Of a stretch of 64,000 bases of DNA, positions 14,647 through 64,000 are shown piece by piece; position 1 is the stretch's first letter; every line of letters starts with the position of its first letter. The translations under genes and the position numbers were made by a program. Location: assembly GCA_025782395.1 (NCBI GenBank), contig JALGZD010000218.1, positions 87,556-151,555 on the forward strand, written 5' to 3'. The stretch comes from a bacterium (GTDB lineage: Bacteria; Joyebacterota; Joyebacteria; Joyebacterales; Joyebacteraceae). The notes under the pieces are model-generated. The model did no database searches. It was not told the origin of the DNA and saw nothing but the letters and a program-made list of their open reading frames with translations.

Positions 14647-14677
14647 CAGTCTGTTTCCGGCATACCAGGTAGTAAAG

Positions 14678-14710
14678 ACGGGGGGGCAGGTCGGCCCCCC
14701 CGTTTCTTTC
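14678..14710. terminator. bidirectional rho-independent terminator between convergent genes
   Basis: ACGGGGGGG-caggtcgg-CCCCCCCGT stem (9 bp) followed by TTTCTTTC on the plus strand. Its reverse complement is followed by TCTTTACT, downstream of the lpxL-like gene. Confidence 0.7.
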
Positions 14711-15755: not shown

Positions 15756-16937
15756 TCAGGCGAATCTCCGCGCCAGCCACGAAAGCTTCACACGAACCGC
15801 CTCGTGCGGACAGACCTCGTGGCAGCAGAGGCACTCCACGCACCTCTTGCGATCGACCACGGGACCAGTCTCCGTCATCCGTATCGCACCGACGGGACAG
15901 CTGCGCACACAGAGAGCGCACGCCTCCGCCCGACAGCCCCACTCCTTCGACATCTCCGGATATACCCAGATCCATGGCTTGAGCGCGCGCATCAGAAAGC
16001 CGGGTATGTAGTTCAGTACTCCGGCTGACGGCAACACGAATCCCTCTGTATCGAACGACTCGGGAGCTTCTCCAAGAATGTCTATCCTGCGCCTGTCGGC
16101 GATGCCGAGACCCTTCTCGGCCGCTCGCCTGATCATGTAAACTCGACCGTCCTTGATCCCCATCATGCCGGCCAGAATCGTGTCGACGGCAACGGCATCG
16201 GTCCCCGCAATGATGGCACCTACAGCGCGTGGCTTTCCACCGGACGGACCATCACCCTCCATGGCGACTACGGCATCGACCACGTTCAGCGCCGGAGCAA
16301 CAAGAGCGAAGATGTCGACAAGATGATGGCTGAAAGGCCTCGGTCTCGGTGCAAGGTTGTGCATGCGCCCCTTCCCGAACCCGGGAATTGAGCCGAACAT
16401 GTTCTTGATGCACCCGGTGAACAGCGTCAGGACGTGCGTCTTCATCTTCGGGACGTTGATGACCACATCCGCGTCCAGAACGGGGCGTGTGATCATGTAC
16501 GATCTCAGTTCGCCCTCGACCGACTCCGCACCCGCTTTCTCGAAGTTCACAAGCTCGATTCCCATGCGCAGAGAGAGCTCGAGGAAACCCGTGTTCCGCC
16601 ACACGCGCTCCACACCCCTTACGGCTCCACCGGGACTGTCTCCTACCCGTGGCTCGACGCCGGCCTCGCGCGCGAGCTCGGTGAGCGCCTGGATTACTGT
16701 TGGATGTGTCGTGATGGCTCTCTCCGGGGCCTTCGCGGAAAGCATGTTGGGTTTGAGAAGGAGGGACTGCCCCCTCGTCACGAATGCCGACATGCCCCCG
16801 AGCAGGTCTACGACCTGCCTCACGGCTCCTCGTACCTCATCGAGGTCGTAGCTCTCGCACCGCGCGATCGCCACCGTTGCTCTGCCGTTCGCCTTCGCCA
16901 CCGCTATCCTGCTCTCGTATAGAAGCCTCCGGGCCAC
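15756..16937 (-). CDS. DUF362 domain protein with C-terminal 2x[4Fe-4S] ferredoxin domain
   Basis: 393 aa. N-terminal ...AIARCESYDLDEV...LLKPNM resembles DUF362. C-terminal CALCVRSCP and CVECLCCHEVCP. Confidence 0.65.
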   Translation of the reverse strand: MARRLLYESRIAVAKANGRATVAIARCESYDLDEVRGAVRQVVDLLGGMSAFVTRGQSLLLKPNMLSAKAPERAITTHPTVIQALTELAREAGVEPRVGDSPGGAVRGVERVWRNTGFLELSLRMGIELVNFEKAGAESVEGELRSYMITRPVLDADVVINVPKMKTHVLTLFTGCIKNMFGSIPGFGKGRMHNLAPRPRPFSHHLVDIFALVAPALNVVDAVVAMEGDGPSGGKPRAVGAIIAGTDAVAVDTILAGMMGIKDGRVYMIRRAAEKGLGIADRRRIDILGEAPESFDTEGFVLPSAGVLNYIPGFLMRALKPWIWVYPEMSKEWGCRAEACALCVRSCPVGAIRMTETGPVVDRKRCVECLCCHEVCPHEAVRVKLSWLARRFA

Positions 16938-18049
16938 GCCTTTGCGAGGCCCCTCAGTTCGAGCTCCATCAACGCTGCCAGCACCTCCCCGAGCGGCGCG
17001 CCCAGTTTCTCGGCTAGGGCTTCCGGCTGCGCGGGAGTGAGCGACAGCAGCCCCAGCAATCCCGCAACGCCGGTTTCCTCGCTCTTCATGAGGGCAGGCC
17101 GGGCCCCGCTCTCAGGAGATGCGCCTGTCGCACACGCCGTCCCGGCAGCGGAGAGTCCATGACGCGCGAACACAGTCCTCTTGACGGGGAATTCGCCCCA
17201 CGAGCCCTCGAGTTCGACGAGGACGTCCTCGATCGATTCGACGAGCTTGGCCCCGGCCTTTATGAGTGAATGAGGACCGCGCGCTGTAATCTCGTCAACC
17301 GGTCCCGGCACTGCGAACACTTCGCGGCCCTGCTCAAGAGCGCACGCAGCCGTTATGAGGGCGCCGCTTCGCTCGCCGGCCTCAACAACTATGATACCCA
17401 TCGAGAGCCCTGCAATGACGCGGTTGCGCTGCGGAAAGGATCCGGGCCTCGGATCCTGCCCGTACGGGAACTCGGTGACCACGACCCCCCGCCTCGCGAT
17501 CTCCTCACAGAGCCCCGCGTTCTCGGGGGGGTAGATGCGATCGAGCCCCGAACCGAGAACGGCAATAGTCGTCCCGCCGGCATCCAGGGCGCCTTCGTGC
17601 GCCGCAGTGTCTATCCCCCGCGCGAGGCCGCTCACTACGGCAATCCCGTGCGAGACCAGTTCCCGCGCCAATCGTCCGGCATTGATCAGGCCCCGGGGCG
17701 TGGCCCGCCTTGTTCCGACGATCGCAACCGCCGGTATTGCGTGCTCAAGCTCGAGCCCTCGCACGAAAAGACCGACAGGAGGCGCATGGATTCCAGCAAG
17801 GAGCTCCGGGTAGTCGCGAGTTCCCGCCACTGCGAAACGTGCGCCGCGAGCGTCTGCCCTGTCGAGCTGTGCCCTGTGTTCCCGCCGGCCAGCACTGTGT
17901 CCTATCGCGCGCAAGGCCCCGTCGGGGCACCGCACGGCCGCCGCAACTACAGATGTGAAAGAACCAAAACGCGTCCTGAGCCGTGCCGCCGTTACAGGCC
18001 CCACACCGTCCGCCAGAAGAACTGCCAGAGCAGCTTCCCGTTCATCCAC
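16904..18049 (-). CDS. dprA: DNA processing protein DprA (Smf)
   Basis: Rossmann-like DprA core VAIVGTRRATPRG...VVSGLARGIDTAAHEGAL. The likely start is GTG at 18047-18049 (VDEREAALAVLLADGVGPVTAARL). The listed ORF's first 43 aa are translated tandem repeats overlapping the obg 3' end. Confidence 0.8.
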   Translation of the reverse strand: MDEREAALAVLLADGVGPVTAARLRTRFGSFTSVVAAAVRCPDGALRAIGHSAGRREHRAQLDRADARGARFAVAGTRDYPELLAGIHAPPVGLFVRGLELEHAIPAVAIVGTRRATPRGLINAGRLARELVSHGIAVVSGLARGIDTAAHEGALDAGGTTIAVLGSGLDRIYPPENAGLCEEIARRGVVVTEFPYGQDPRPGSFPQRNRVIAGLSMGIIVVEAGERSGALITAACALEQGREVFAVPGPVDEITARGPHSLIKAGAKLVESIEDVLVELEGSWGEFPVKRTVFARHGLSAAGTACATGASPESGARPALMKSEETGVAGLLGLLSLTPAQPEALAEKLGAPLGEVLAALMELELRGLAKAWPGGFYTRAG

Positions 18050-18075
18050 CCGACCACCCCCCGTCCCAGTGAACG

Positions 18076-18154
18076 TACTCCTCCAACAGGAGGAGCCTAC
18101 TCCTCCAACGAGAGGAGCCCACTCCTCCAACGAGAGGAGCCTACTCCACCGTCC
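18076..18154. repeat. 3.5 tandem copies of a 22-bp palindromic unit (TACTCCTCCAACGAGAGGAGCC) between obg and dprA
   Basis: Units at 18076-18097, 18098-18119 and 18120-18141, plus a partial copy. Each contains CTCCTC/GAGGAG inverted arms. The obg stop (TAG at 18141-18143) lies in the last unit. Confidence 0.8.
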
Positions 18155-19130
18155 TGTCGGCTTCATCAAGAAGGGCACGCATCATGCCCTTGAGCTTCTC
18201 CAACCCAGCGCCTGTCGCGGACGAGATCTCTACGATATCCTCGCCCCCGAACGCAACATCTCCGGATCTCACGCCCGATCCGAGGTCCATCTTCGTCAAG
18301 GCCACAATGCGAGGTTTCTCGGAGACGCCGAAACCGTAGCTCCTGAGCTCATGGAGCAGCGTGCGATAGGAGACCTCGGGGTCAGGATCACTTGAGTCCA
18401 CGAGCACGACCAGGACTCGCGTCCGCTCGATGTGACGCAGGAACCGGTCGCCGAGTCCCTTTCCCTGGTGGGCGCCTTCGATGAGACCGGGAAGATCGGC
18501 CACGACGAAGCTCCGATCGATATCGAACGGCACAAGTCCAAGAACAGGACTCAGGGTCGTGAACGGAAAGCTCCCGATCTTCGGACGGGCGGCCGAGATC
18601 GTGGAGAGAAGGGTCGACTTGCCCGCGTTCGGAAGCCCCACCAGCCCGACGTCCGCGACCAGCTTGAGTTCGAGCTCCACCATCCGCTCCTCACCAGGAC
18701 GTCCTTCCTCGCACCTTGTTGGAGCCCGATTGGTGGAGGTCGCGAACCTCGCGTTTCCCCTGCCGCCACGACCGCCGGCGGCAACAACGAAGCTCTTCCC
18801 GACCTCATCCAGGTCAGCAAGGATCTCGCCGATATCGACGTCCTTGATCATCGTTCCGACCGGGACCTTGAGAACAACACCTTCTCCGCTCCTGCCCGTC
18901 TTACGCGAGCCGAGACCGTGATGCCCTCGCTCAGCTTTGATCTCCCTCTTGTATCTGAAATCGAGAAGCGTCGAGTGGCCCCTGGACGCTTCAATGACTA
19001 TGCTGCCCCCCCTGCCCCCGTCTCCGCCGTTGGGGCCGCCGAAAGGCACGAATTTCTCCCGTCGAAAGCTCTTGCAGCCGTTCCCTCCATCTCCTGCCTT
19101 CACACGTATCCTGGCTGTATCGATCAGCAT
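18141..19130 (-). CDS. obg: GTPase Obg/CgtA
   Basis: 329 aa. N-terminal glycine-rich Obg fold [34 protein letters not shown]1-G4 motifs [17 protein letters not shown]. Confidence 0.9.
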
Positions 19131-19140
19131 CCGGGAACTC

Positions 19141-20586
19141 CTATGCCCCGACGGCGGGTGCCCTGAGATCGTCCCACCATGGGTTGGGCCTGTCGGATAG
19201 TATTTTGTCCGGGTTCAGAAGACCGGATGGATCGAGCGCGCGCCTGACGGCCACGGTGACGCGAAGGGCCGCTTCGTCCAGCTCCTCCGCCAGGTGTTCC
19301 GCCTTGGTTATCCCGATGCCGTGTTCGCCGCTCAGGGTCCCACCCAGCTTGAGTGCTGCGCTGAAGAGCATCGATACGGCCTGCTGCGCCCGGACCATGT
19401 GTGACCGGTTGGCGCGGTCGAGCATTATGTTCACGTGGAGGTTGCCGTCGCCTGCGTGACCGAACGCCAGGATCGGCAGATTGACCTCCTCTGAAATGCG
19501 TCGCATCTCCGCGATAAACATCGGAATCCGGCTTCTCGGAACGGCAATGTCCTCGTTGATCTTGCCGGTGCCGAGCCTCGCAAGAGATGCGGAGATGGAA
19601 CGCCTGATCTCCCAGAGCTCATCCCGCTCGTTCTCATCGGATGCGGCTCTGATTCCCGTGGCCCCGCAGCTCTCAAGGATGGGCCGCAGTCTCCCCCACA
19701 TCCCGGCGAGATCGTCCGCAGCACCCTCGACTTCTATGAGAAGCGCTCCCTCCGACCTCGTGTCCGGAGCTCGGCCGCACACGTATTCGGTAGCGCAGGC
19801 AAGAGTGTCCCCGTCCATGATCTCGAGAACGCTCACCGGTACACCATCGGCCGTTATCATTGCCACGGCCGCCGCTGCATCATCGAGCGAGCCGAACTCG
19901 GCCCAGTACGTTCGCGTAACCTCGGGAGCATCGGTCAATCTCAGCGCAACGTTGGTCACCACAGCCAGCGTCCCCTCCGAACCCACGATGAGCGGGCCGG
20001 GATCCCACGCGGCACTGACGTCCGAGGCCGAGGCAAGGTAACCGGTCCGGATGATACTGCCGTCCATTGTTACCAGTTCCAGCCCCACGACGTAGTCTCC
20101 GGTAGTCCCGTAGAGCACGGTCCGGGGTCCCGCGGCACCCTCCGCTACGTTGCCGCCGATAGTGGACACCTTGAGGCTCGCCGGATCGGGAGGATACGTC
20201 AGTCCCAGGCTCTCCACGGTGTTGCGCAGGTCATCATTGACCACGCCGGGCTCGACCACGGCAACACGCGCCGTGACGTTCACGTCGGCAATACGCGTCA
20301 TCTTCTCGAACGAGAGTGCGATTCCCCCACAGATCGGAATGCTACCGCCCGTGTACCCGGTGCCCGCCCCTCTCGGGACGACAGGAAGACGTGCTCGGGA
20401 TGCTATCTTCACCACGGCCACGACATGATCCGGTGACTCAGGCCACACCACGATATCGGGAAGCCCACGGATGTCCGTTGCGTCGAAGGAGTAGCAGATC
20501 CTGTCCTCGCGTGCTGCCGAGCAGGATCCTTGAACCGCAGCCTCGATCTCCCTCTGAACAGCCTTTGTCAGGCGACTGCCTTCCAT
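19141..20586 (-). CDS. FAD-linked oxidase (GlcD / D-lactate dehydrogenase family)
   Basis: FAD-binding PCMH domain ([14 protein letters not shown]) and C-terminal FAD-oxidase domain. Probable start is MEGSRL; the first 22 aa of the listed ORF are doubtful. Confidence 0.75.
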
Positions 20587-25814: not shown

Positions 25815-26282
25815 CTACTCCCCTTCCGCCTCGAGCGGAAGCAAGATCTCGTCAACGGTTATCATCGGTCTCATACGCTCGAGAGTTCGCCGACCTATCC
25901 CCTTCACTTTAAGAAGGTCCTCCGGGTCGGAGAAACGCCCAAGCGTCTGCCTGAGTTCAATGATGGCCCCCGCACGAACGGGGCCTATGCCGGGAAGCTC
26001 AACGAGTTCGGTCTCGCCGGCAGTGTTCAAATTCAGAGGCCAAACCGGGGCCAAGCTCTCCGCGACTTCTTCCTCGACCGTCGCCGTCGACGGTAGAAGC
26101 CCCTCGACGCGCGACGGGTCAACTCGCCCGACCGCGAGCACTATGACGCCGACCAGGACGGCAATCACCAGAAACACGATGACTCCGCGCTCATCGCGTG
26201 TGAAAATGCCTTTCACCCCATCACCTCCGCCCAATACGTTGAATCTAACGAATTGCAAAACGCAATGCAAACTATTCCTCAC
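25815..26282 (-). CDS. comEA: ComEA-like helix-hairpin-helix DNA-binding protein
   Basis: 155 aa. N-terminal membrane anchor. LNLNTAGETELVELPGIGPVRAGAIIELR tandem HhH. Confidence 0.7.
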   Translation of the reverse strand: MRNSLHCVLQFVRFNVLGGGDGVKGIFTRDERGVIVFLVIAVLVGVIVLAVGRVDPSRVEGLLPSTATVEEEVAESLAPVWPLNLNTAGETELVELPGIGPVRAGAIIELRQTLGRFSDPEDLLKVKGIGRRTLERMRPMITVDEILLPLEAEGE

Positions 26283-26386
26283 AGTCGCCCAGCGGGCGGA
26301 CCACTCGGCCTATCGGAGGACAGCCGCTCAGGGAGAGAAACGATATATGCCAGCGGGTAGCGAGACAGGGAGGAAAACACGCGATC

Positions 26387-26452
26387 CTTGTGGGGTAACG
26401 ACAAGGGGAAGATGCCCGATGCTTGTGGGACAACGACAGGAGACAGATGCCC
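26387..26452. repeat. two tandem imperfect ~35-bp direct repeats, each with hairpin potential, upstream of comEA
   Basis: CTTGTGGGGTAACGACAAGGGGAAGATGCCC (26387-26417) and CTTGTGGGACAACGACAGGAGACAGATGCCC (26422-26452). CCTTGT/ACAAGG inverted arms within each copy. Confidence 0.7.
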
Positions 26453-26489: not shown

Positions 26490-28412
26490 TCAGTTCCAGA
26501 AATCCCAGGAGAACCCGACGGTGACGCGCCGGCCGGCCACATCGCGCTCCGGCCACTGCGGACGGTCCGTCTCAAATGGATTGTCCATGTAAACGTAGAC
26601 GTGCGCTGGTCCCACGTTTCCGGTCACGCTCGCTCGGGTGTAGAGCACGTGGTCATCCACCACATCTCCCCAGAGCTCTCCGACATCCGGAGCTTCAAAC
26701 GTCGCCGCGATCGCCAGTCGCGTGCTGAGCGTCTCCTTGAAGAGGAGTCGCACCAGCCACACCTCCGCATCGACCCTGACGGGCGAAACCGGAACCAGAC
26801 TGTGCAGGCCTCCGACCTCTGTAAGATCCAGGCGCAGCCTCGCGCCACCTCTCAGGCTGTCGTCCAGGGCCGCCCACAACGAGAGCGCTCCTATTGTCTC
26901 GCTGCTGCAGTTGACGGGAAGGAGGACACCGCCGTCGTCTTCAAGAAGGGCGATCGGCGAGTCCATTCTGGACAGCCTACCTGCGAAACCTCCCGAGACG
27001 ATCCGCCTGCGGCCCGACCAGCCGCAGCTGAGCGTAGCAACCGTCTCAGGATTCAGCGCAGGATTCCCTTCCGCGGACATGCCGGCTCCACCAGAGACCG
27101 GGATCGACGTCTCGACAAGCGCAAGTTCGAGCACCGTGGGCTGTCGTCCGCCGAGATTCGCTGCCAACCAGAAGCTACTCGCACCGGGGCCACGCGTGAG
27201 AAAAAGAACCGCTTGCGGAATGAGCGTTTCACGTTCACGACTTGCTCCAGCGGACGCATAGAGCGTCCAGGCCGAACCACACTCCAGCCTGCGATCGACG
27301 CCCGCAGCCACCGTGACAGCATTCTGCGGTTTTCCAAGCAGTGATCCGCGCGCTCTGTGGCTCGCGCCGCGAATCCGCACGGCGTCGAACGGACCGGCAG
27401 CGAAGGAGAGCGTCACACCATCTGTTGTGCCGTCGATACCACGACCGCCCGTGCCGGACCGATCCGAATTGAGCCAACTCTCGATGTGGAAGAGCTGTAC
27501 GCGAGTTCTCCCGTCTGTCGCAACCAGATCGACATCACTTCTGATGAGGCGATTGGCCACCGATGCGATGTCAGACGACTCGAACGGAAGATGCCGCTCT
27601 GCATCTACTCTCATCCCCCGAGCATCGACCCTCCACGCTCCAGGGAGAGAGACCGTGATTCTCCCACCCACGGTTCCGCTCTCGTACGATCCGCCCGGCA
27701 CCGGGGCCCGTCCGTCGCTCGCCTCCATGAAGCCCTGGAAACCCACGTCTCCATCCAGGAGTCGTCGTCCGAACTCGAATGACCGGGCGCGCGCGCTCAG
27801 GTCCCCGCTCATCATCCCCACCCGGGCGAACGGCACCGCCGCGGGTTTCCGCCCGGGATGCACGCTCACGGAGAGCCCCCCGGCGGCGCCTGCTCCGGAG
27901 CCCGCCGGCCCGAAGGGCGCTACGCTGATGCGCTCCGCCGCTGTGGACGGCCATATTGAAAGATCCGGACCGCTCGGAACCAGCACCACACCGTCGGAGA
28001 GCCCATATGCCTCCAGAAGGTCGAGTCCCCCAAGAATGCGATCGTACATGTCTCGACCGCCCATGGTCACCGTGGTCATCGAGGGAGGAAGGGCTCCACA
28101 GGCAAGCGATGAACGGTGGCCCCGCCAACCGGATGACTCTACCCGCACTCCGGGAACTCCTGCAAGCAGGACCGCAGCGTTCTCTGTCCCTGTGGGAGCC
28201 ATGCTCCGGACGGCAACGATAGAAAGCGGATGCCCGATGCGCTCGAGCAGAAGCGTGTCCGGGCTCTCGTGCTCATGCCGCGCCGGGAAGACCCGAGTGC
28301 TGTCCGGGGCGAATGGCGCAGGCTTCGGGATATCATCCGGTTCCTGCGCGGCTACGAGAGCGGCGCTCGCCACGACTACCAGAACAGCGACAAGGTTGCG
28401 AACTGCTATCAT
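26490..28412 (-). CDS. outer-membrane protein, possibly a TonB-dependent-receptor-like barrel
   Basis: About 640 aa from ATG at about 28412 (signal peptide MIAVRNLVAVLVVVASAALVAAQEP). PDTLLLERI is a TonB-box-like motif. AVLLAGVPGVRVESSG is a plug-like motif. Long stretch of alternating beta strands. The upstream 218 aa of the listed ORF overlap another gene and are spurious. Confidence 0.4.
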   Translation of the reverse strand: MIAVRNLVAVLVVVASAALVAAQEPDDIPKPAPFAPDSTRVFPARHEHESPDTLLLERIGHPLSIVAVRSMAPTGTENAAVLLAGVPGVRVESSGWRGHRSSLACGALPPSMTTVTMGGRDMYDRILGGLDLLEAYGLSDGVVLVPSGPDLSIWPSTAAERISVAPFGPAGSGAGAAGGLSVSVHPGRKPAAVPFARVGMMSGDLSARARSFEFGRRLLDGDVGFQGFMEASDGRAPVPGGSYESGTVGGRITVSLPGAWRVDARGMRVDAERHLPFESSDIASVANRLIRSDVDLVATDGRTRVQLFHIESWLNSDRSGTGGRGIDGTTDGVTLSFAAGPFDAVRIRGASHRARGSLLGKPQNAVTVAAGVDRRLECGSAWTLYASAGASRERETLIPQAVLFLTRGPGASSFWLAANLGGRQPTVLELALVETSIPVSGGAGMSAEGNPALNPETVATLSCGWSGRRRIVSGGFAGRLSRMDSPIALLEDDGGVLLPVNCSSETIGALSLWAALDDSLRGGARLRLDLTEVGGLHSLVPVSPVRVDAEVWLVRLLFKETLSTRLAIAATFEAPDVGELWGDVVDDHVLYTRASVTGNVGPAHVYVYMDNPFETDRPQWPERDVAGRRVTVGFSWDFWN

Positions 28413-28438
28413 CGGCCCCTCGCGGAAAAGCGTTACAG

Positions 28439-29032
28439 TCAGATCGACCGTGAGTCCACACGTCGCCCGGCCGTGGCAACGGCTCGAGGCACAATCACGG
28501 GCACAAGCACAGCGAAGACGATCGTGTTTGACACCATATGCACAGTCGAGAAGAAGGCATTGGCGACCAGCGCTGCCCTGAACCCCGTGCCGACATCCAA
28601 GCTGGCCACGGCCAGACCGGCGATAACGCCGACCTGGTAGATACCCGTCAATACGAATCCGGTCACGGCCGCGAAGATCACTTCGCGAAGCCTTCCCCCT
28701 GTCCGCCATACCCCTCTCAGGCAGCCACCGACGAAGCCGGCGAACCCCATCGCAAGAACCTGCGCGACGAACATGGGTGGAATGCCCAAACCGGAACCGA
28801 TGGGGTTCGCCCCGGAGTAGATCCCCATGACGATCATCCCCAGACAAGCTCCACGCCAGCGGCCCAGTACGGCTCCAGACACGAACACAGTGAAAGAAAT
28901 GAGTTCGATATTCGGGACGTGCGCGAGCAGCATACCGAGCGCGACGGCCAGCGCAGTCAGGATCGCCATCAGCACGAGGTCGCGAGCGCCCCGGCCCCCG
29001 CTCTTCTCCCACTCGACCATCGTTGCCTCCAC
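28439..29032 (-). CDS. small polytopic membrane protein (ECF-transporter S-component-like)
   Basis: 197 aa. 5-6 hydrophobic helices. GTG start. No soluble domains. Confidence 0.4.
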   Translation of the reverse strand: MEATMVEWEKSGGRGARDLVLMAILTALAVALGMLLAHVPNIELISFTVFVSGAVLGRWRGACLGMIVMGIYSGANPIGSGLGIPPMFVAQVLAMGFAGFVGGCLRGVWRTGGRLREVIFAAVTGFVLTGIYQVGVIAGLAVASLDVGTGFRAALVANAFFSTVHMVSNTIVFAVLVPVIVPRAVATAGRRVDSRSI

Positions 29033-29080
29033 ACGCCGTGGCGATGAGGATCACCGACGCATCCACTGCGGCGGCAGCTG

Positions 29081-40425: not shown

Positions 40426-40501
40426 AGAATTCGCGGATCAGACCTACGTGCAGCTTGCCGTCCTAGAATTCGCGGATCAGACCTACGTGCAGCTTGCCGT
40501 C
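40426..40501. repeat. tandem duplication (39-bp period) of the 3' end of the Omp85 gene
   Basis: AGAATTCGCGGATCAGACCTACGTGCAGCTTGCCGTC at 40426-40462 and 40465-40501. On the minus strand both copies encode DGKLHVGLIREF followed by a stop (TGA in the distal copy, TAG in the copy that terminates the gene). Confidence 0.85.
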
Positions 40502-46681: not shown

Positions 46682-47557
46682 CTAGAACGACATCTCGAGC
46701 GTCACCCGGCTGCCCGGAGATCCGTCATCGTCTACGACGGGCGCAACGAAGAGCCTGGCGTGTGGCTCGTTCTTGAGGCCCTGGTTGTGCCGACGCGCCA
46801 TCCAGGCGCTGTCGATGCTGCTTATCGCGCGATTCAGGATCGCGAGCCCGATCATGTGGAACGCGTTCTTGCGCGAAAGCGATGCGCTGTGGCGAAGATC
46901 CAGGTACTCGGAGAACCGTCCGCTACTCTCCCATTCCCAACCTGCGTCCCCAAAGTAGCCGTGTTGTGCGAAGTACTCACTCTGGGCATCCAGGTCATCT
47001 GGATAGAGACTGCGCGCCTCGCTCCTGATCCCCTCATTGTAGCTGTCCTCACCCTCGCTGCGGATGTAGTCGGCGATGTCCCGATAGTACTCACTCGTCG
47101 AGCCTCTGGGCACACCGGCGAAGATGGAGGCGAATTCCTTGTAGTCGTCCTCGCGCATACTCCCCTGGATCTCGAACGAAGCGTACCCAACCCAGATGGC
47201 GCCCTCGGCAGCCATGAAGGCCTTTCCACGACCATCGTTCCCCGTGTACATCTCCCCCCAGCCGGGTAAAACCATGGACATGAGCAGAGCGACCATCGGA
47301 TTCTTCATATCTGTGCCGGACTCTGACGCGGGAACTCTCCTGCCTCTCCCACTCGAGCTGAAATCAGCCGTGCTTCCGATCTCATTCAGGGAGAGCCCGT
47401 CCATCTCGAGTTCCACGCGCGCGCCGTACGCATGCGGAAGATCAGTGGTCACTACGGCCGACGCGGCTCCGGGTAGAAGATCAGCGGTGAGTACGGCCGA
47501 TGCGGCTCCGGGTATGAGCACGGCCATGGCCAAGAGAGCTGTAACGGTGCGATTCAT
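46682..47557 (-). CDS. secreted hypothetical protein, paralog A (shares PG.GE hydrophobic-helix motif and C-terminal region with 47569-48414)
   Basis: 291 aa. Signal peptide. Internal 13-aa tandem duplication IPGAASAVLTADL/LPGAASAVVTTDL. Motif LLMSMVLPGWGEMYTGNDGRGKAFMAAEGAIWVGYASFE. Confidence 0.5.
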   Translation of the reverse strand: MNRTVTALLAMAVLIPGAASAVLTADLLPGAASAVVTTDLPHAYGARVELEMDGLSLNEIGSTADFSSSGRGRRVPASESGTDMKNPMVALLMSMVLPGWGEMYTGNDGRGKAFMAAEGAIWVGYASFEIQGSMREDDYKEFASIFAGVPRGSTSEYYRDIADYIRSEGEDSYNEGIRSEARSLYPDDLDAQSEYFAQHGYFGDAGWEWESSGRFSEYLDLRHSASLSRKNAFHMIGLAILNRAISSIDSAWMARRHNQGLKNEPHARLFVAPVVDDDGSPGSRVTLEMSF

Positions 47558-63022: not shown

Positions 63023-63676
63023 CTATCTCTCGTCTCGATCTGCGTTCGGCTTTGTCTTCGGCTCTCTCTCCGGCGTCTCGTAGTTGGCGATTACCCAATC
63101 GGCCAGTTCGACCAGGTTGTCGCGCCCGCTCTTCGCGAACTCGTGTCGCATTTCGAAAACGGTCTCTTCCAGCATGCGCCCCCAGTCGGCGGCATCCAGA
63201 GAAAGCTCCACGAACGTCCGGCAGACGGGGCCTCCGACCCAACGATCCGGAAACCCGTCATAGGCGCGGCCGGTCTCGCAGTCCTCAAAGTAGACCCGGT
63301 CCAGACGCGCTGCTTCTATCAGGTGGCCCGCATAGGACTCAAGTCCCCGTTCTTTGAACTCCACTCTATCAATCGACGTCAGCTCTATACCGCTCCCTCT
63401 TATCGCTCCCGAGAAAACTCTTGTGAAGTCCGTCCGTGACTTCCTGGTGATCTGGGAAAAGACGTCCGCCCGTGCCAGCTCAACGCTCTCCGCCGGTCCG
63501 GCCGCCATCGAGCATCCGCCGACGTAGATGTCCCGTCCATCGGCTGTGGGGTGCACCATGCGGACCCACTCCGGCAGTGGCGACGCGCCACCCGACACCT
63601 GTGTCCCGTGGCCGGCACACCCAGGAAGTGCCACAGCCACAATGATTGCGATAAGAAGTGCAGCAACACGAGTCAT
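63023..63676 (-). CDS. lipoprotein, unknown function
   Basis: About 217 aa from the internal ATG (MTRVAALLIAIIVAVALPGCAG lipobox). The upstream 78 codons of the listed ORF are Arg/Gly-rich and probably non-coding. Confidence 0.45.
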   Translation of the reverse strand: MTRVAALLIAIIVAVALPGCAGHGTQVSGGASPLPEWVRMVHPTADGRDIYVGGCSMAAGPAESVELARADVFSQITRKSRTDFTRVFSGAIRGSGIELTSIDRVEFKERGLESYAGHLIEAARLDRVYFEDCETGRAYDGFPDRWVGGPVCRTFVELSLDAADWGRMLEETVFEMRHEFAKSGRDNLVELADWVIANYETPEREPKTKPNADRDER

Positions 63677-63745
63677 GGGGATCCCTCCTGGCCTGTGTGG
63701 TGTTCCCGATTGAGTGGCGTGCCCGTCAACCGGTCTCTCTCTGCT

Positions 63746-63809
63746 GCTCTGCCTGATCCGCCTGGCAGTATACCCCGCTCCTCTGCCTGATCCGCCTGGC
63801 AGTATACCC
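63746..63809. repeat. two tandem 30-bp direct repeats (34-bp period) CTCTGCCTGATCCGCCTGGCAGTATACCCC
   Basis: Exact copies at 63746-63775 and 63780-63809. Minus-strand reading of each contains TATACT. Located between the rRNA terminator and the lipoprotein gene. Confidence 0.8.
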
Positions 63810-63825
63810 CACCCGCGGACAAAGA

Positions 63826-63860: not shown

Positions 63861-63865
63861 ACGTT

Positions 63866-64000
63866 CCGGCGGCGTCCTACTCTCCCGCAAGGTCGCCCGA
63901 GCAGTACCATCGGCGCTGGAGGGCTTAACTACTGTGTTCGAAATGGTAACAGGTGTGACCCCTCCGCCATTGCCACCGAAACAATTCGCGCCGCCATGAC
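63866..64000 (-). rRNA. rrf: 5S ribosomal RNA (3' part certain; 5' end at or near the window edge)
   Basis: Plus-strand text CCTACTCTCCCGC...ACCATCGGCGCT...GTTCGAAATGG...CAGGTG...CCACCG is the reverse complement of conserved 5S segments (CGCCGAUGGU, CCAUUUCGAAC, CACCUG). Helix I GGCGGCG/CGCCGCC closes at 63866-63874 and 63987-63995. Confidence 0.7.

Follow-up and report, generated by a model that had tools for sequence, protein, structure and literature searches.

The window analysed here is a 64-kb stretch of DNA that, judging by its Obg homologues, comes from an uncultured lineage with "Candidatus Eisenbacteria" MAGs as its named relatives. Its minus strand carries the obg gene (18141..19130), which encodes the GTPase ObgE (Pfam GTP1_OBG, 9.7e-61, and also MMR_HSR1) and ends in a TAG stop codon at 18143..18141. 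The amino acid identity of this Obg to the Obg proteins of relatives is 94%, 91% and 81%. Downstream of obg and on the same strand lies dprA (16904..18049 from its real start; Pfam DNA_processg_A, 1e-72, and DprA_WH). Both genes form part of a string with the order FAD-oxidase, obg, dprA, DUF362 and lipid-A-type acyltransferase, which was kept in every fetched relative whose sequence reached those genes. The string is ended by a two-way intrinsic terminator (14676-14705, both strands) that has a 10-12 bp G/C stem with T-runs on both strands and is located about 50 nt beyond the stop codon of the acyltransferase gene (14756).

The dprA open reading frame, as listed, runs from 18178 to 16904 (minus strand), and its extension upstream to 18178 is a tandem repeat read in frame. 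An earlier note on this DNA had proposed that the N-terminus of this frame is nothing but the translated repeat and that the real start lies at about 18049, and both proposals were confirmed. The GTG codon at 18049..18047 (VDEREAALAVLLADGVG...), together with the encoded DEREAAL sequence, is conserved in all the relatives and outgroups reaching this region, and it is also the dprA start chosen by the gene callers in four relatives (L001, L040, L044 and L045). The NCBI-derived protein P0244, the deposited DprA (408 aa), begins with MEEWAPLVGGVGSSCWRSTFTGTGGGR ahead of the conserved VDEREAAL; its start codon is a TTG in the loop of repeat unit 1 and 27 of its residues are translated repeat. The gene model is therefore corrected by removing these 27 repeat-derived residues from the deposited protein and placing the true start at the GTG at 18049. 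A coding role of the repeat as an N-terminal extension of DprA was rejected, since relatives with 0 or 1 unit either lack the extension or have it shifted out of frame, and the conserved N-terminus is VDEREAAL. The GGAGGAG motif of the last repeat unit was likewise rejected as the ribosome-binding site of dprA, because the GTG is 27 nt away and the motif is not followed by a start codon at a workable distance.

The 25 nt immediately upstream of the GTG (GTTCACTGGGACGGGGGGTGGTCGG; 18050..18074, minus strand) correspond to the ancestral obg-dprA spacer, which is found, identical or nearly so, directly after the TAG in relatives devoid of the repeat (the divergence being greater in L045 and L001 than in L044 and L053, whose spacers are near-identical to it). 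A Shine-Dalgarno-like sequence, GGGGGGTGG, is present within this spacer at 18062..18054, and the spacer GUUCACU sequence is predicted by folding to pair with the dprA start region. A hairpin was also predicted at 18041-18074 (minus strand), in which CGUUCACU pairs with GGUGGAUG, hiding the dprA GUG (unpaired probability 0.02-0.04) and leaving the Shine-Dalgarno-like G-run in the loop. Folding covered the window, L040 and L044; the hairpin sequence is kept in L040 and L044, differs in L053 by one G fewer in the loop G-run, and is not kept in L045, L001 or L043. Due to its lack of conservation in L045 and L001, this hairpin was not used in the explanation given below.

Between obg and dprA there are three 22-nt units arranged head to tail (18075-18140 of the window), with a partial unit that reaches into the final obg codons. 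Tandem Repeats Finder, run on the window, returned a repeat at 18076-18147 with a period of 22, 3.3 copies, 92% matches, a score of 123 and the consensus TACTCCTCCAACGAGAGGAGCC. When the 22-mer was searched in the whole 64-kb window allowing up to three mismatches, it was found at positions 18076, 18098 and 18120 only, and none of 100 dinucleotide-preserving shuffles contained any 22-mer match. The 22-bp tandem array noticed earlier does exist, with every unit a hairpin, and its position is exactly between the obg stop codon and dprA. This feature is real, statistically solid and, in the DNA searched, confined to one locus. The earlier note had counted three full units plus a partial one, which is correct, and had described one unit as carrying a single substitution, which is not: two of the three full units deviate from the consensus, the + strand unit at 18076 by two substitutions (an adjacent GA to AG change in the loop) and the one at 18120 by one.

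Read on the sense strand, the region consists of ...GTG GAG TAG, followed by GCTCCTCTCGTTGGAGGAGTGG, GCTCCTCTCGTTGGAGGAGTAG, GCTCCTCCTGTTGGAGGAGTAC and GTTCACTGGGACGGGGGGTGGTCGG, and then by GTG GAT GAA... Repeat unit 1 (18119..18140, minus strand) starts 1 nt past the obg stop codon and forms an 8-bp stem with two G.U pairs and the loop CGUU (covariance model score, 32.7 bits; folding energy, -11.5 kcal/mol, z = -3.3). Repeat unit 2 (18097..18118, minus strand; 34.2 bits) ends at its 3' side in GAGTAG, a copy of the obg end. Repeat unit 3 (18075..18096, minus strand) contains seven Watson-Crick pairs and one G.U pair, with the loop UGUU (36.1 bits; -14.8 kcal/mol, z = -4.7). The partial unit ("unit 0") is made up of the terminal obg codons GGT GGA G-TAG (18150..18141), which approximate the 3' arm plus the spacer of a repeat unit; the terminal obg codons GGTGGAGTAG thus resemble the 3' half of an additional unit. 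The obg stop codon is placed, as had been stated for this end of the array, at the junction of the third + strand unit and the partial unit.

The 6-bp CTCCTC/GAGGAG stem that had been noticed in each unit is real, and in the minus-strand RNA it extends to eight pairs, including G.U, closed by a 4-nt loop. In the obg-dprA mRNA each unit thus folds as eight pairs plus a tetraloop with energies from -11.5 to -14.8 kcal/mol, and the fold of the array region has a z of -4.7. Considering the ten units from this and related loci, 92.5% of the stem cells are paired. G.U combinations occupy 11 of these cells and A.C combinations none, which makes for a more complete helix on the sense strand than on the antisense strand. 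The folding energy of the sense units is likewise better, by 2.2-2.5 kcal/mol per unit. Compensatory double changes were found in two of the eight stem pairs. One of them is T-A in L040 versus C-G elsewhere, and the other is C-G versus A-U in unit 1 of L043, with an A.G intermediate in unit 3 of L008. The support from covariation is modest, since this count of compensatory pairs was reached by 22 of 500 shuffles and the ten units compared are related by duplication. Within the arrays of the window and L008, variation is limited to the loop, the loop-closing pair and the 2-nt spacer between units. Conservation of the stem within an array could reflect recent duplication and not selection. Because all the arms are mutually complementary, two nearly isoenergetic folds are predicted, namely three local hairpins (-38.7 kcal/mol) and one nested hairpin of about 24 pairs (-41.4 kcal/mol). 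If the first arm is blocked, as it would be by a terminating ribosome, the predicted fold changes.

The obg-dprA spacer was then compared among relatives. According to the nucleotide identity of obg plus dprA, the window and L008 (91%) and L040 and L043 (95%) form two pairs, about 87% identical to each other, which constitute clade A. Clade B (L001-4, L044, L045 and L053) is about 78% identical to clade A at the nucleotide level. All four clade B genomes analysed have a 24-25-nt spacer with no repeat unit, in which TAG is followed by G(T/C)TCACTGGGACGGGG... and then by GTG (in full, TAG-G(T/C)TCACTGGGACGGGGG(T)GGTCGG-GTG). In L040 the spacer of clade B is interrupted by an exact insertion of 22 nt, GTTCCTCCTGCTGGAGGAACAC, which forms a perfect 8-bp stem and represents a single unit. 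Three units are present in the window and also in L043 (flanks 95% identical to those of L040), where they are more diverged, units 2 and 3 having decayed to 5-6 pairs. At least 3.1 units were found in L008 and in the independent Logan contig L042, and in L008 a full 3' arm (CTG GAG GAG TAG) has developed from the final obg codons, changing the C-terminus of Obg to ...RLEE. The copy junctions (GGAGTAG/GCTCC) reuse the end of obg. The number of units across nine related loci is therefore 0, 1, 3 or at least 3, so that the variable copy number named in the earlier note as a sign of a VNTR was observed, in this case between related genomes.

Both assemblies from the CSMAG_2124 lineage stop within the array (positions 1-68 of L008, a k141 MEGAHIT contig, and 1846-1901 of L042). 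These contig breaks suggest a longer array or mixed copy numbers in that population.

Two outgroup lineages with the same gene order have obg-dprA spacers of 74 and 98 nt, which contain unrelated G+C-rich hairpins without T-runs (L050, 3478-3553; L046, 3481-3580). The one in L050, for example, is GTCGCCGAC-AGGG-GTCGGCGAC and begins 12 nt past the obg stop codon. A hairpin in this spacer is therefore a recurrent feature, which hints that it may be useful at this place.

The series of 0, 1, 3 and at least 3 units indicates that an ancestor of a small Eisenbacteria-like clade acquired a 22-nt G+C-rich hairpin immediately past the obg stop codon, by insertion into a spacer of 24-25 nt, and that the unit was subsequently amplified head to tail in 22-nt steps. 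The amplification was most likely due to slipped-strand or unequal pairing between GGAG(G/T)AG motifs. Since the array occupies a single locus and its copy number differs between relatives, it is an intercistronic hairpin minisatellite, and a young one, located between obg and dprA. Taken alone, this account of the anatomy and origin of the array is one that we hold with high confidence. The natural series is a clean one (0, 1 and at least 3 units) and shows a new hairpin arising after a stop codon and then multiplying, and the array is a possible strain marker for this uncultured lineage.

With regard to function, obg and dprA are probably co-transcribed, since the spacer is too short to hold a promoter, a scan of positions 16500-19500 detected no sigma-70-like promoter, and the operon terminator is located at 14.7 kb. 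In the mRNA the units would fold either as three adjacent 8-bp tetraloop hairpins or as one nested hairpin of about 24 pairs. The ancestral spacing of 25 nt between obg and dprA would permit translational coupling, and the array lengthens it to 91 nt and would place a strong structure directly 3' of the obg stop codon. Structure and added length together would weaken the termination-reinitiation coupling of dprA to obg, and the hairpins might in addition block 3'-to-5' exonucleases, shielding the obg part of the transcript. Both effects would lower the dprA output relative to obg, leaving dprA to rely on a weak start site of its own, GGGGGGUGG/GUG. The roles in decoupling and as an exonuclease barrier are proposed here by analogy with E. 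coli REP sequences and other intercistronic stem-loops. According to a review, structure just downstream of the upstream stop codon correlates negatively with translational coupling, and additional spacing of less than 20 nt can already reduce coupling substantially (PMC12548453). An effect of the array on regulation at the transcript level is thus plausible, although four related genomes (clade B) lack any hairpin, which speaks against a needed function, as do the decay of two L043 units and the different copy numbers of genomes with 95% identical flanks, and the effect on the expression of the operon is likely to be modest. We put forward the loosening of the expression link between obg and dprA as a tentative role, somewhat short of an even chance; the whole explanation, which joins hairpin insertion, slippage amplification and obg-dprA decoupling, is the one favoured over the rivals below and could equally well prove right or wrong. 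Should the obg:dprA ratio indeed be altered by the array, this would be a simple case in which a slippage-prone RNA structure tunes an operon.

A serious rival is that the array is a neutral, slippage-driven repeat, i.e. that the hairpin arose and expanded by replication slippage with no selected role, and that any effect on obg and dprA is small and tolerated. This is possible, although we consider it rather doubtful. It is consistent with copy numbers of 0, 1, 3 and at least 3 among genomes whose flanks are 78-95% identical, and particularly with the presence of one unit in L040 and three in L043. The decay of the L043 stems fits as well, as does the fact that two independent assemblies of the CSMAG_2124 lineage break within the array, as would be expected if the repeat were long or heterogeneous. 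Short intergenic segments bearing hairpins have also been duplicated in tandem elsewhere in the window, at 26382 and 63743. Against neutrality stand the compensatory changes in the stem, the restriction of G.U pairs to the sense strand and the concentration of variation in the loops, together with the outgroups that carry other hairpins at the same place.

A factor-independent terminator or attenuator, which had been contemplated in the earlier note, would stop or pause the polymerase after obg, with read-through into dprA regulated by the alternative pairing of neighbouring arms. The stable G+C-rich stems at the end of a gene are of the kind expected for such an element; local, cross-unit and nested pairings compete with one another, since the 5' and 3' arms are all mutually complementary, and blocking the first arm alters the predicted fold. 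However, the array is followed by ACGUUCACUGGG, which contains no T-run, and no terminator was detected by scanning positions 16500-19500, whereas clear T-runs are present at the terminators of the same organism located after the 5S rRNA gene (GAACCCCCT...AGGGGGTTC plus TTCTTT) and after the acyltransferase gene. Moreover, dprA starts 25 nt past the array, which leaves no space for a promoter of its own. A search against Rfam gave no match at the gathering score either, the only sub-threshold match being a microRNA precursor model (16.4 bits versus a 92-bit cutoff, E = 2.5). A classical terminator role is therefore unlikely, and we consider the terminator or attenuator reading improbable.

A more elaborate version of the regulatory role is that the array acts as a heritable, copy-number-tunable control of DprA, whose function in natural transformation is to load RecA onto the incoming DNA. 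In every unit a perfect Shine-Dalgarno sequence (GGAGGAG) would pair with its complement, and a ribosome terminating at the obg stop codon would occlude the first arm, moving the register of pairing further along the array. How much translation of dprA follows that of obg would thereby be set by the number of units, and lineages would switch their recombination capacity by slippage. We regard this as very unlikely.

The array might also act at the DNA level, as an operator or iteron-like set of three 8-4-8 palindromes spaced 22 bp (about two helical turns) apart and bound by a dimeric regulator controlling dprA. The palindromic units and their regular 22-bp phase would suit such a function. 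Nevertheless, the half-sites are asymmetric as DNA, pairs 1, 6 and 8 being G.T in many units, and the sequences of the loop and the outer stem drift while pairing is kept. The array is, besides, located inside an operon with no promoter-like site nearby, and in some relatives there is a single unit or none. The protein-binding DNA array that had been suggested is thus disfavoured by the asymmetry of the stem pairs between the strands, and this reading is highly improbable.

Dispersal of the unit was analysed by means of a covariance model built on the ten units and searched against 146 kb of DNA (the window plus nine related loci). The model matched those ten units alone, with scores of 30-36 bits; the next matches (15.8 and 12.4 bits, E > 0.1) do not represent further copies in these 146 kb. 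A 19-nt core pattern, GCTCCTCYYGTTGGAGGAG, was searched in one genome per species from 185,579 species and gave 30 single matches. Twenty-nine of them were in unrelated taxa, which corresponds to the chance level, and the remaining one was in the relative CSMAG_2124 (L008), at the obg-dprA locus itself; this sister MAG therefore has no second exact copy. A scan of metagenomes with GGCTCCTCNNGTYGGAGGAGT provided five single matches, all inside unrelated coding sequence, and no further arrays. Perfect hairpins of at least 8 bp were not enriched in the window (11 versus 5-15 in Markov shuffles), indicating that there is no general hairpin family in it. Thus, in the DNA searched (the 64-kb window, 146 kb of the clade, the sister MAG and the two public collections) the copies are confined to the obg-dprA locus and the distribution of the element is not REP-, MITE- or MIRU-like, contrary to the REP-like dispersal considered in the earlier note. 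That the array is one insertion site of such a mobile repeat family can hence be dismissed as extremely improbable: the short imperfect palindrome, the GTAG or GTGG ahead of each stem (compare the GTAG head of REPs) and the clean 22-nt insertion as first step would suit it, but no additional copy was found by any of these searches and the GTAG can be traced to the ancestral obg GAG-TAG, also found in hairpin-less genomes.

The interpretation of the array as an intercistronic hairpin minisatellite can be compared with known systems. REP/BIME elements are dispersed outside genes in tens to hundreds of copies per genome, each with a 20-40-nt imperfect palindrome and a GTAG-type head, and those located between malE and malF of E. 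coli are intercistronic stem-loops that stabilise the upstream part of the operon mRNA. Liang, Rudd and Deutscher reportedly observed in 2015 that REPs situated no more than 15 nt from a stop codon stall terminating ribosomes. Like these stem-loops, the array consists of G+C-rich hairpins without T-runs between genes that appear to be co-transcribed, 1 nt past the upstream stop codon, and the effects expected from it concern the relative expression of the two cistrons. The unit does contain a palindrome, and the GTAG or GTGG that precedes its stem comes from the obg end as indicated above. Unlike REP/BIME, the array is a single-locus, tandemly amplified element of only 22 nt per unit.

The array also resembles the mycobacterial MIRU-VNTR loci (PMC12548453) in being a repeat of an intra-operon spacer that touches the upstream stop codon and varies in copy number between genomes. 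MIRU units measure 40-100 bp, occupy many loci and contain a short ORF which keeps translational coupling by overlapping with the stop and start codons on either side. In contrast, the unit of the array is a hairpin of 22 nt, not a multiple of 3, found at a single locus, and it has no conserved reading frame, because one unit shifts the frame and three units do not. With rho-independent terminators the array shares a stable G+C-rich stem-loop at the end of a gene, but it is not followed by a U-tract and is located within an operon, with the next start codon 25 nt away. The array therefore belongs to a known kind of element (intercistronic stem-loop or VNTR) and does not constitute a new class.

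Four other tandem duplications were observed in the window. The one at 26382-26452 (2 x 35 nt, 83% match) is the second intergenic tandem duplication and lies in a gap of about 207 nt that separates ORF 29066..26490 from ORF 26282..25815, both on the minus strand. A 6-bp hairpin (CCTTGT...ACAAGG) is found in each copy, and in its anatomy the duplication is similar to the obg-dprA array, with co-oriented genes on both sides of a hairpin that has been duplicated. At 63743-63810, downstream of the 5S rRNA gene (63980..63864, minus strand) by about 55 nt and immediately past its canonical terminator, there is a tandem repeat of 2 x 34 nt (97% match). Its unit, GGGGTATACTGCCAGGCGGATCAGGCAGAG(G/C)AGC, includes a -10-like TATACT and a 5-bp hairpin, and it is possible that a promoter or operator of the following gene (ATG near 63675) has been duplicated here. 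The remaining two are recent in-frame duplications within coding sequence: a perfect duplication of 39 nt (13 codons) at 40426-40501, where EFADQTYVQLAVL occurs twice in a + strand frame of 657 codons, and a tandem duplication of 39 nt (13 codons) at 47437-47514, which is 89% identical and is contained in a long open frame.
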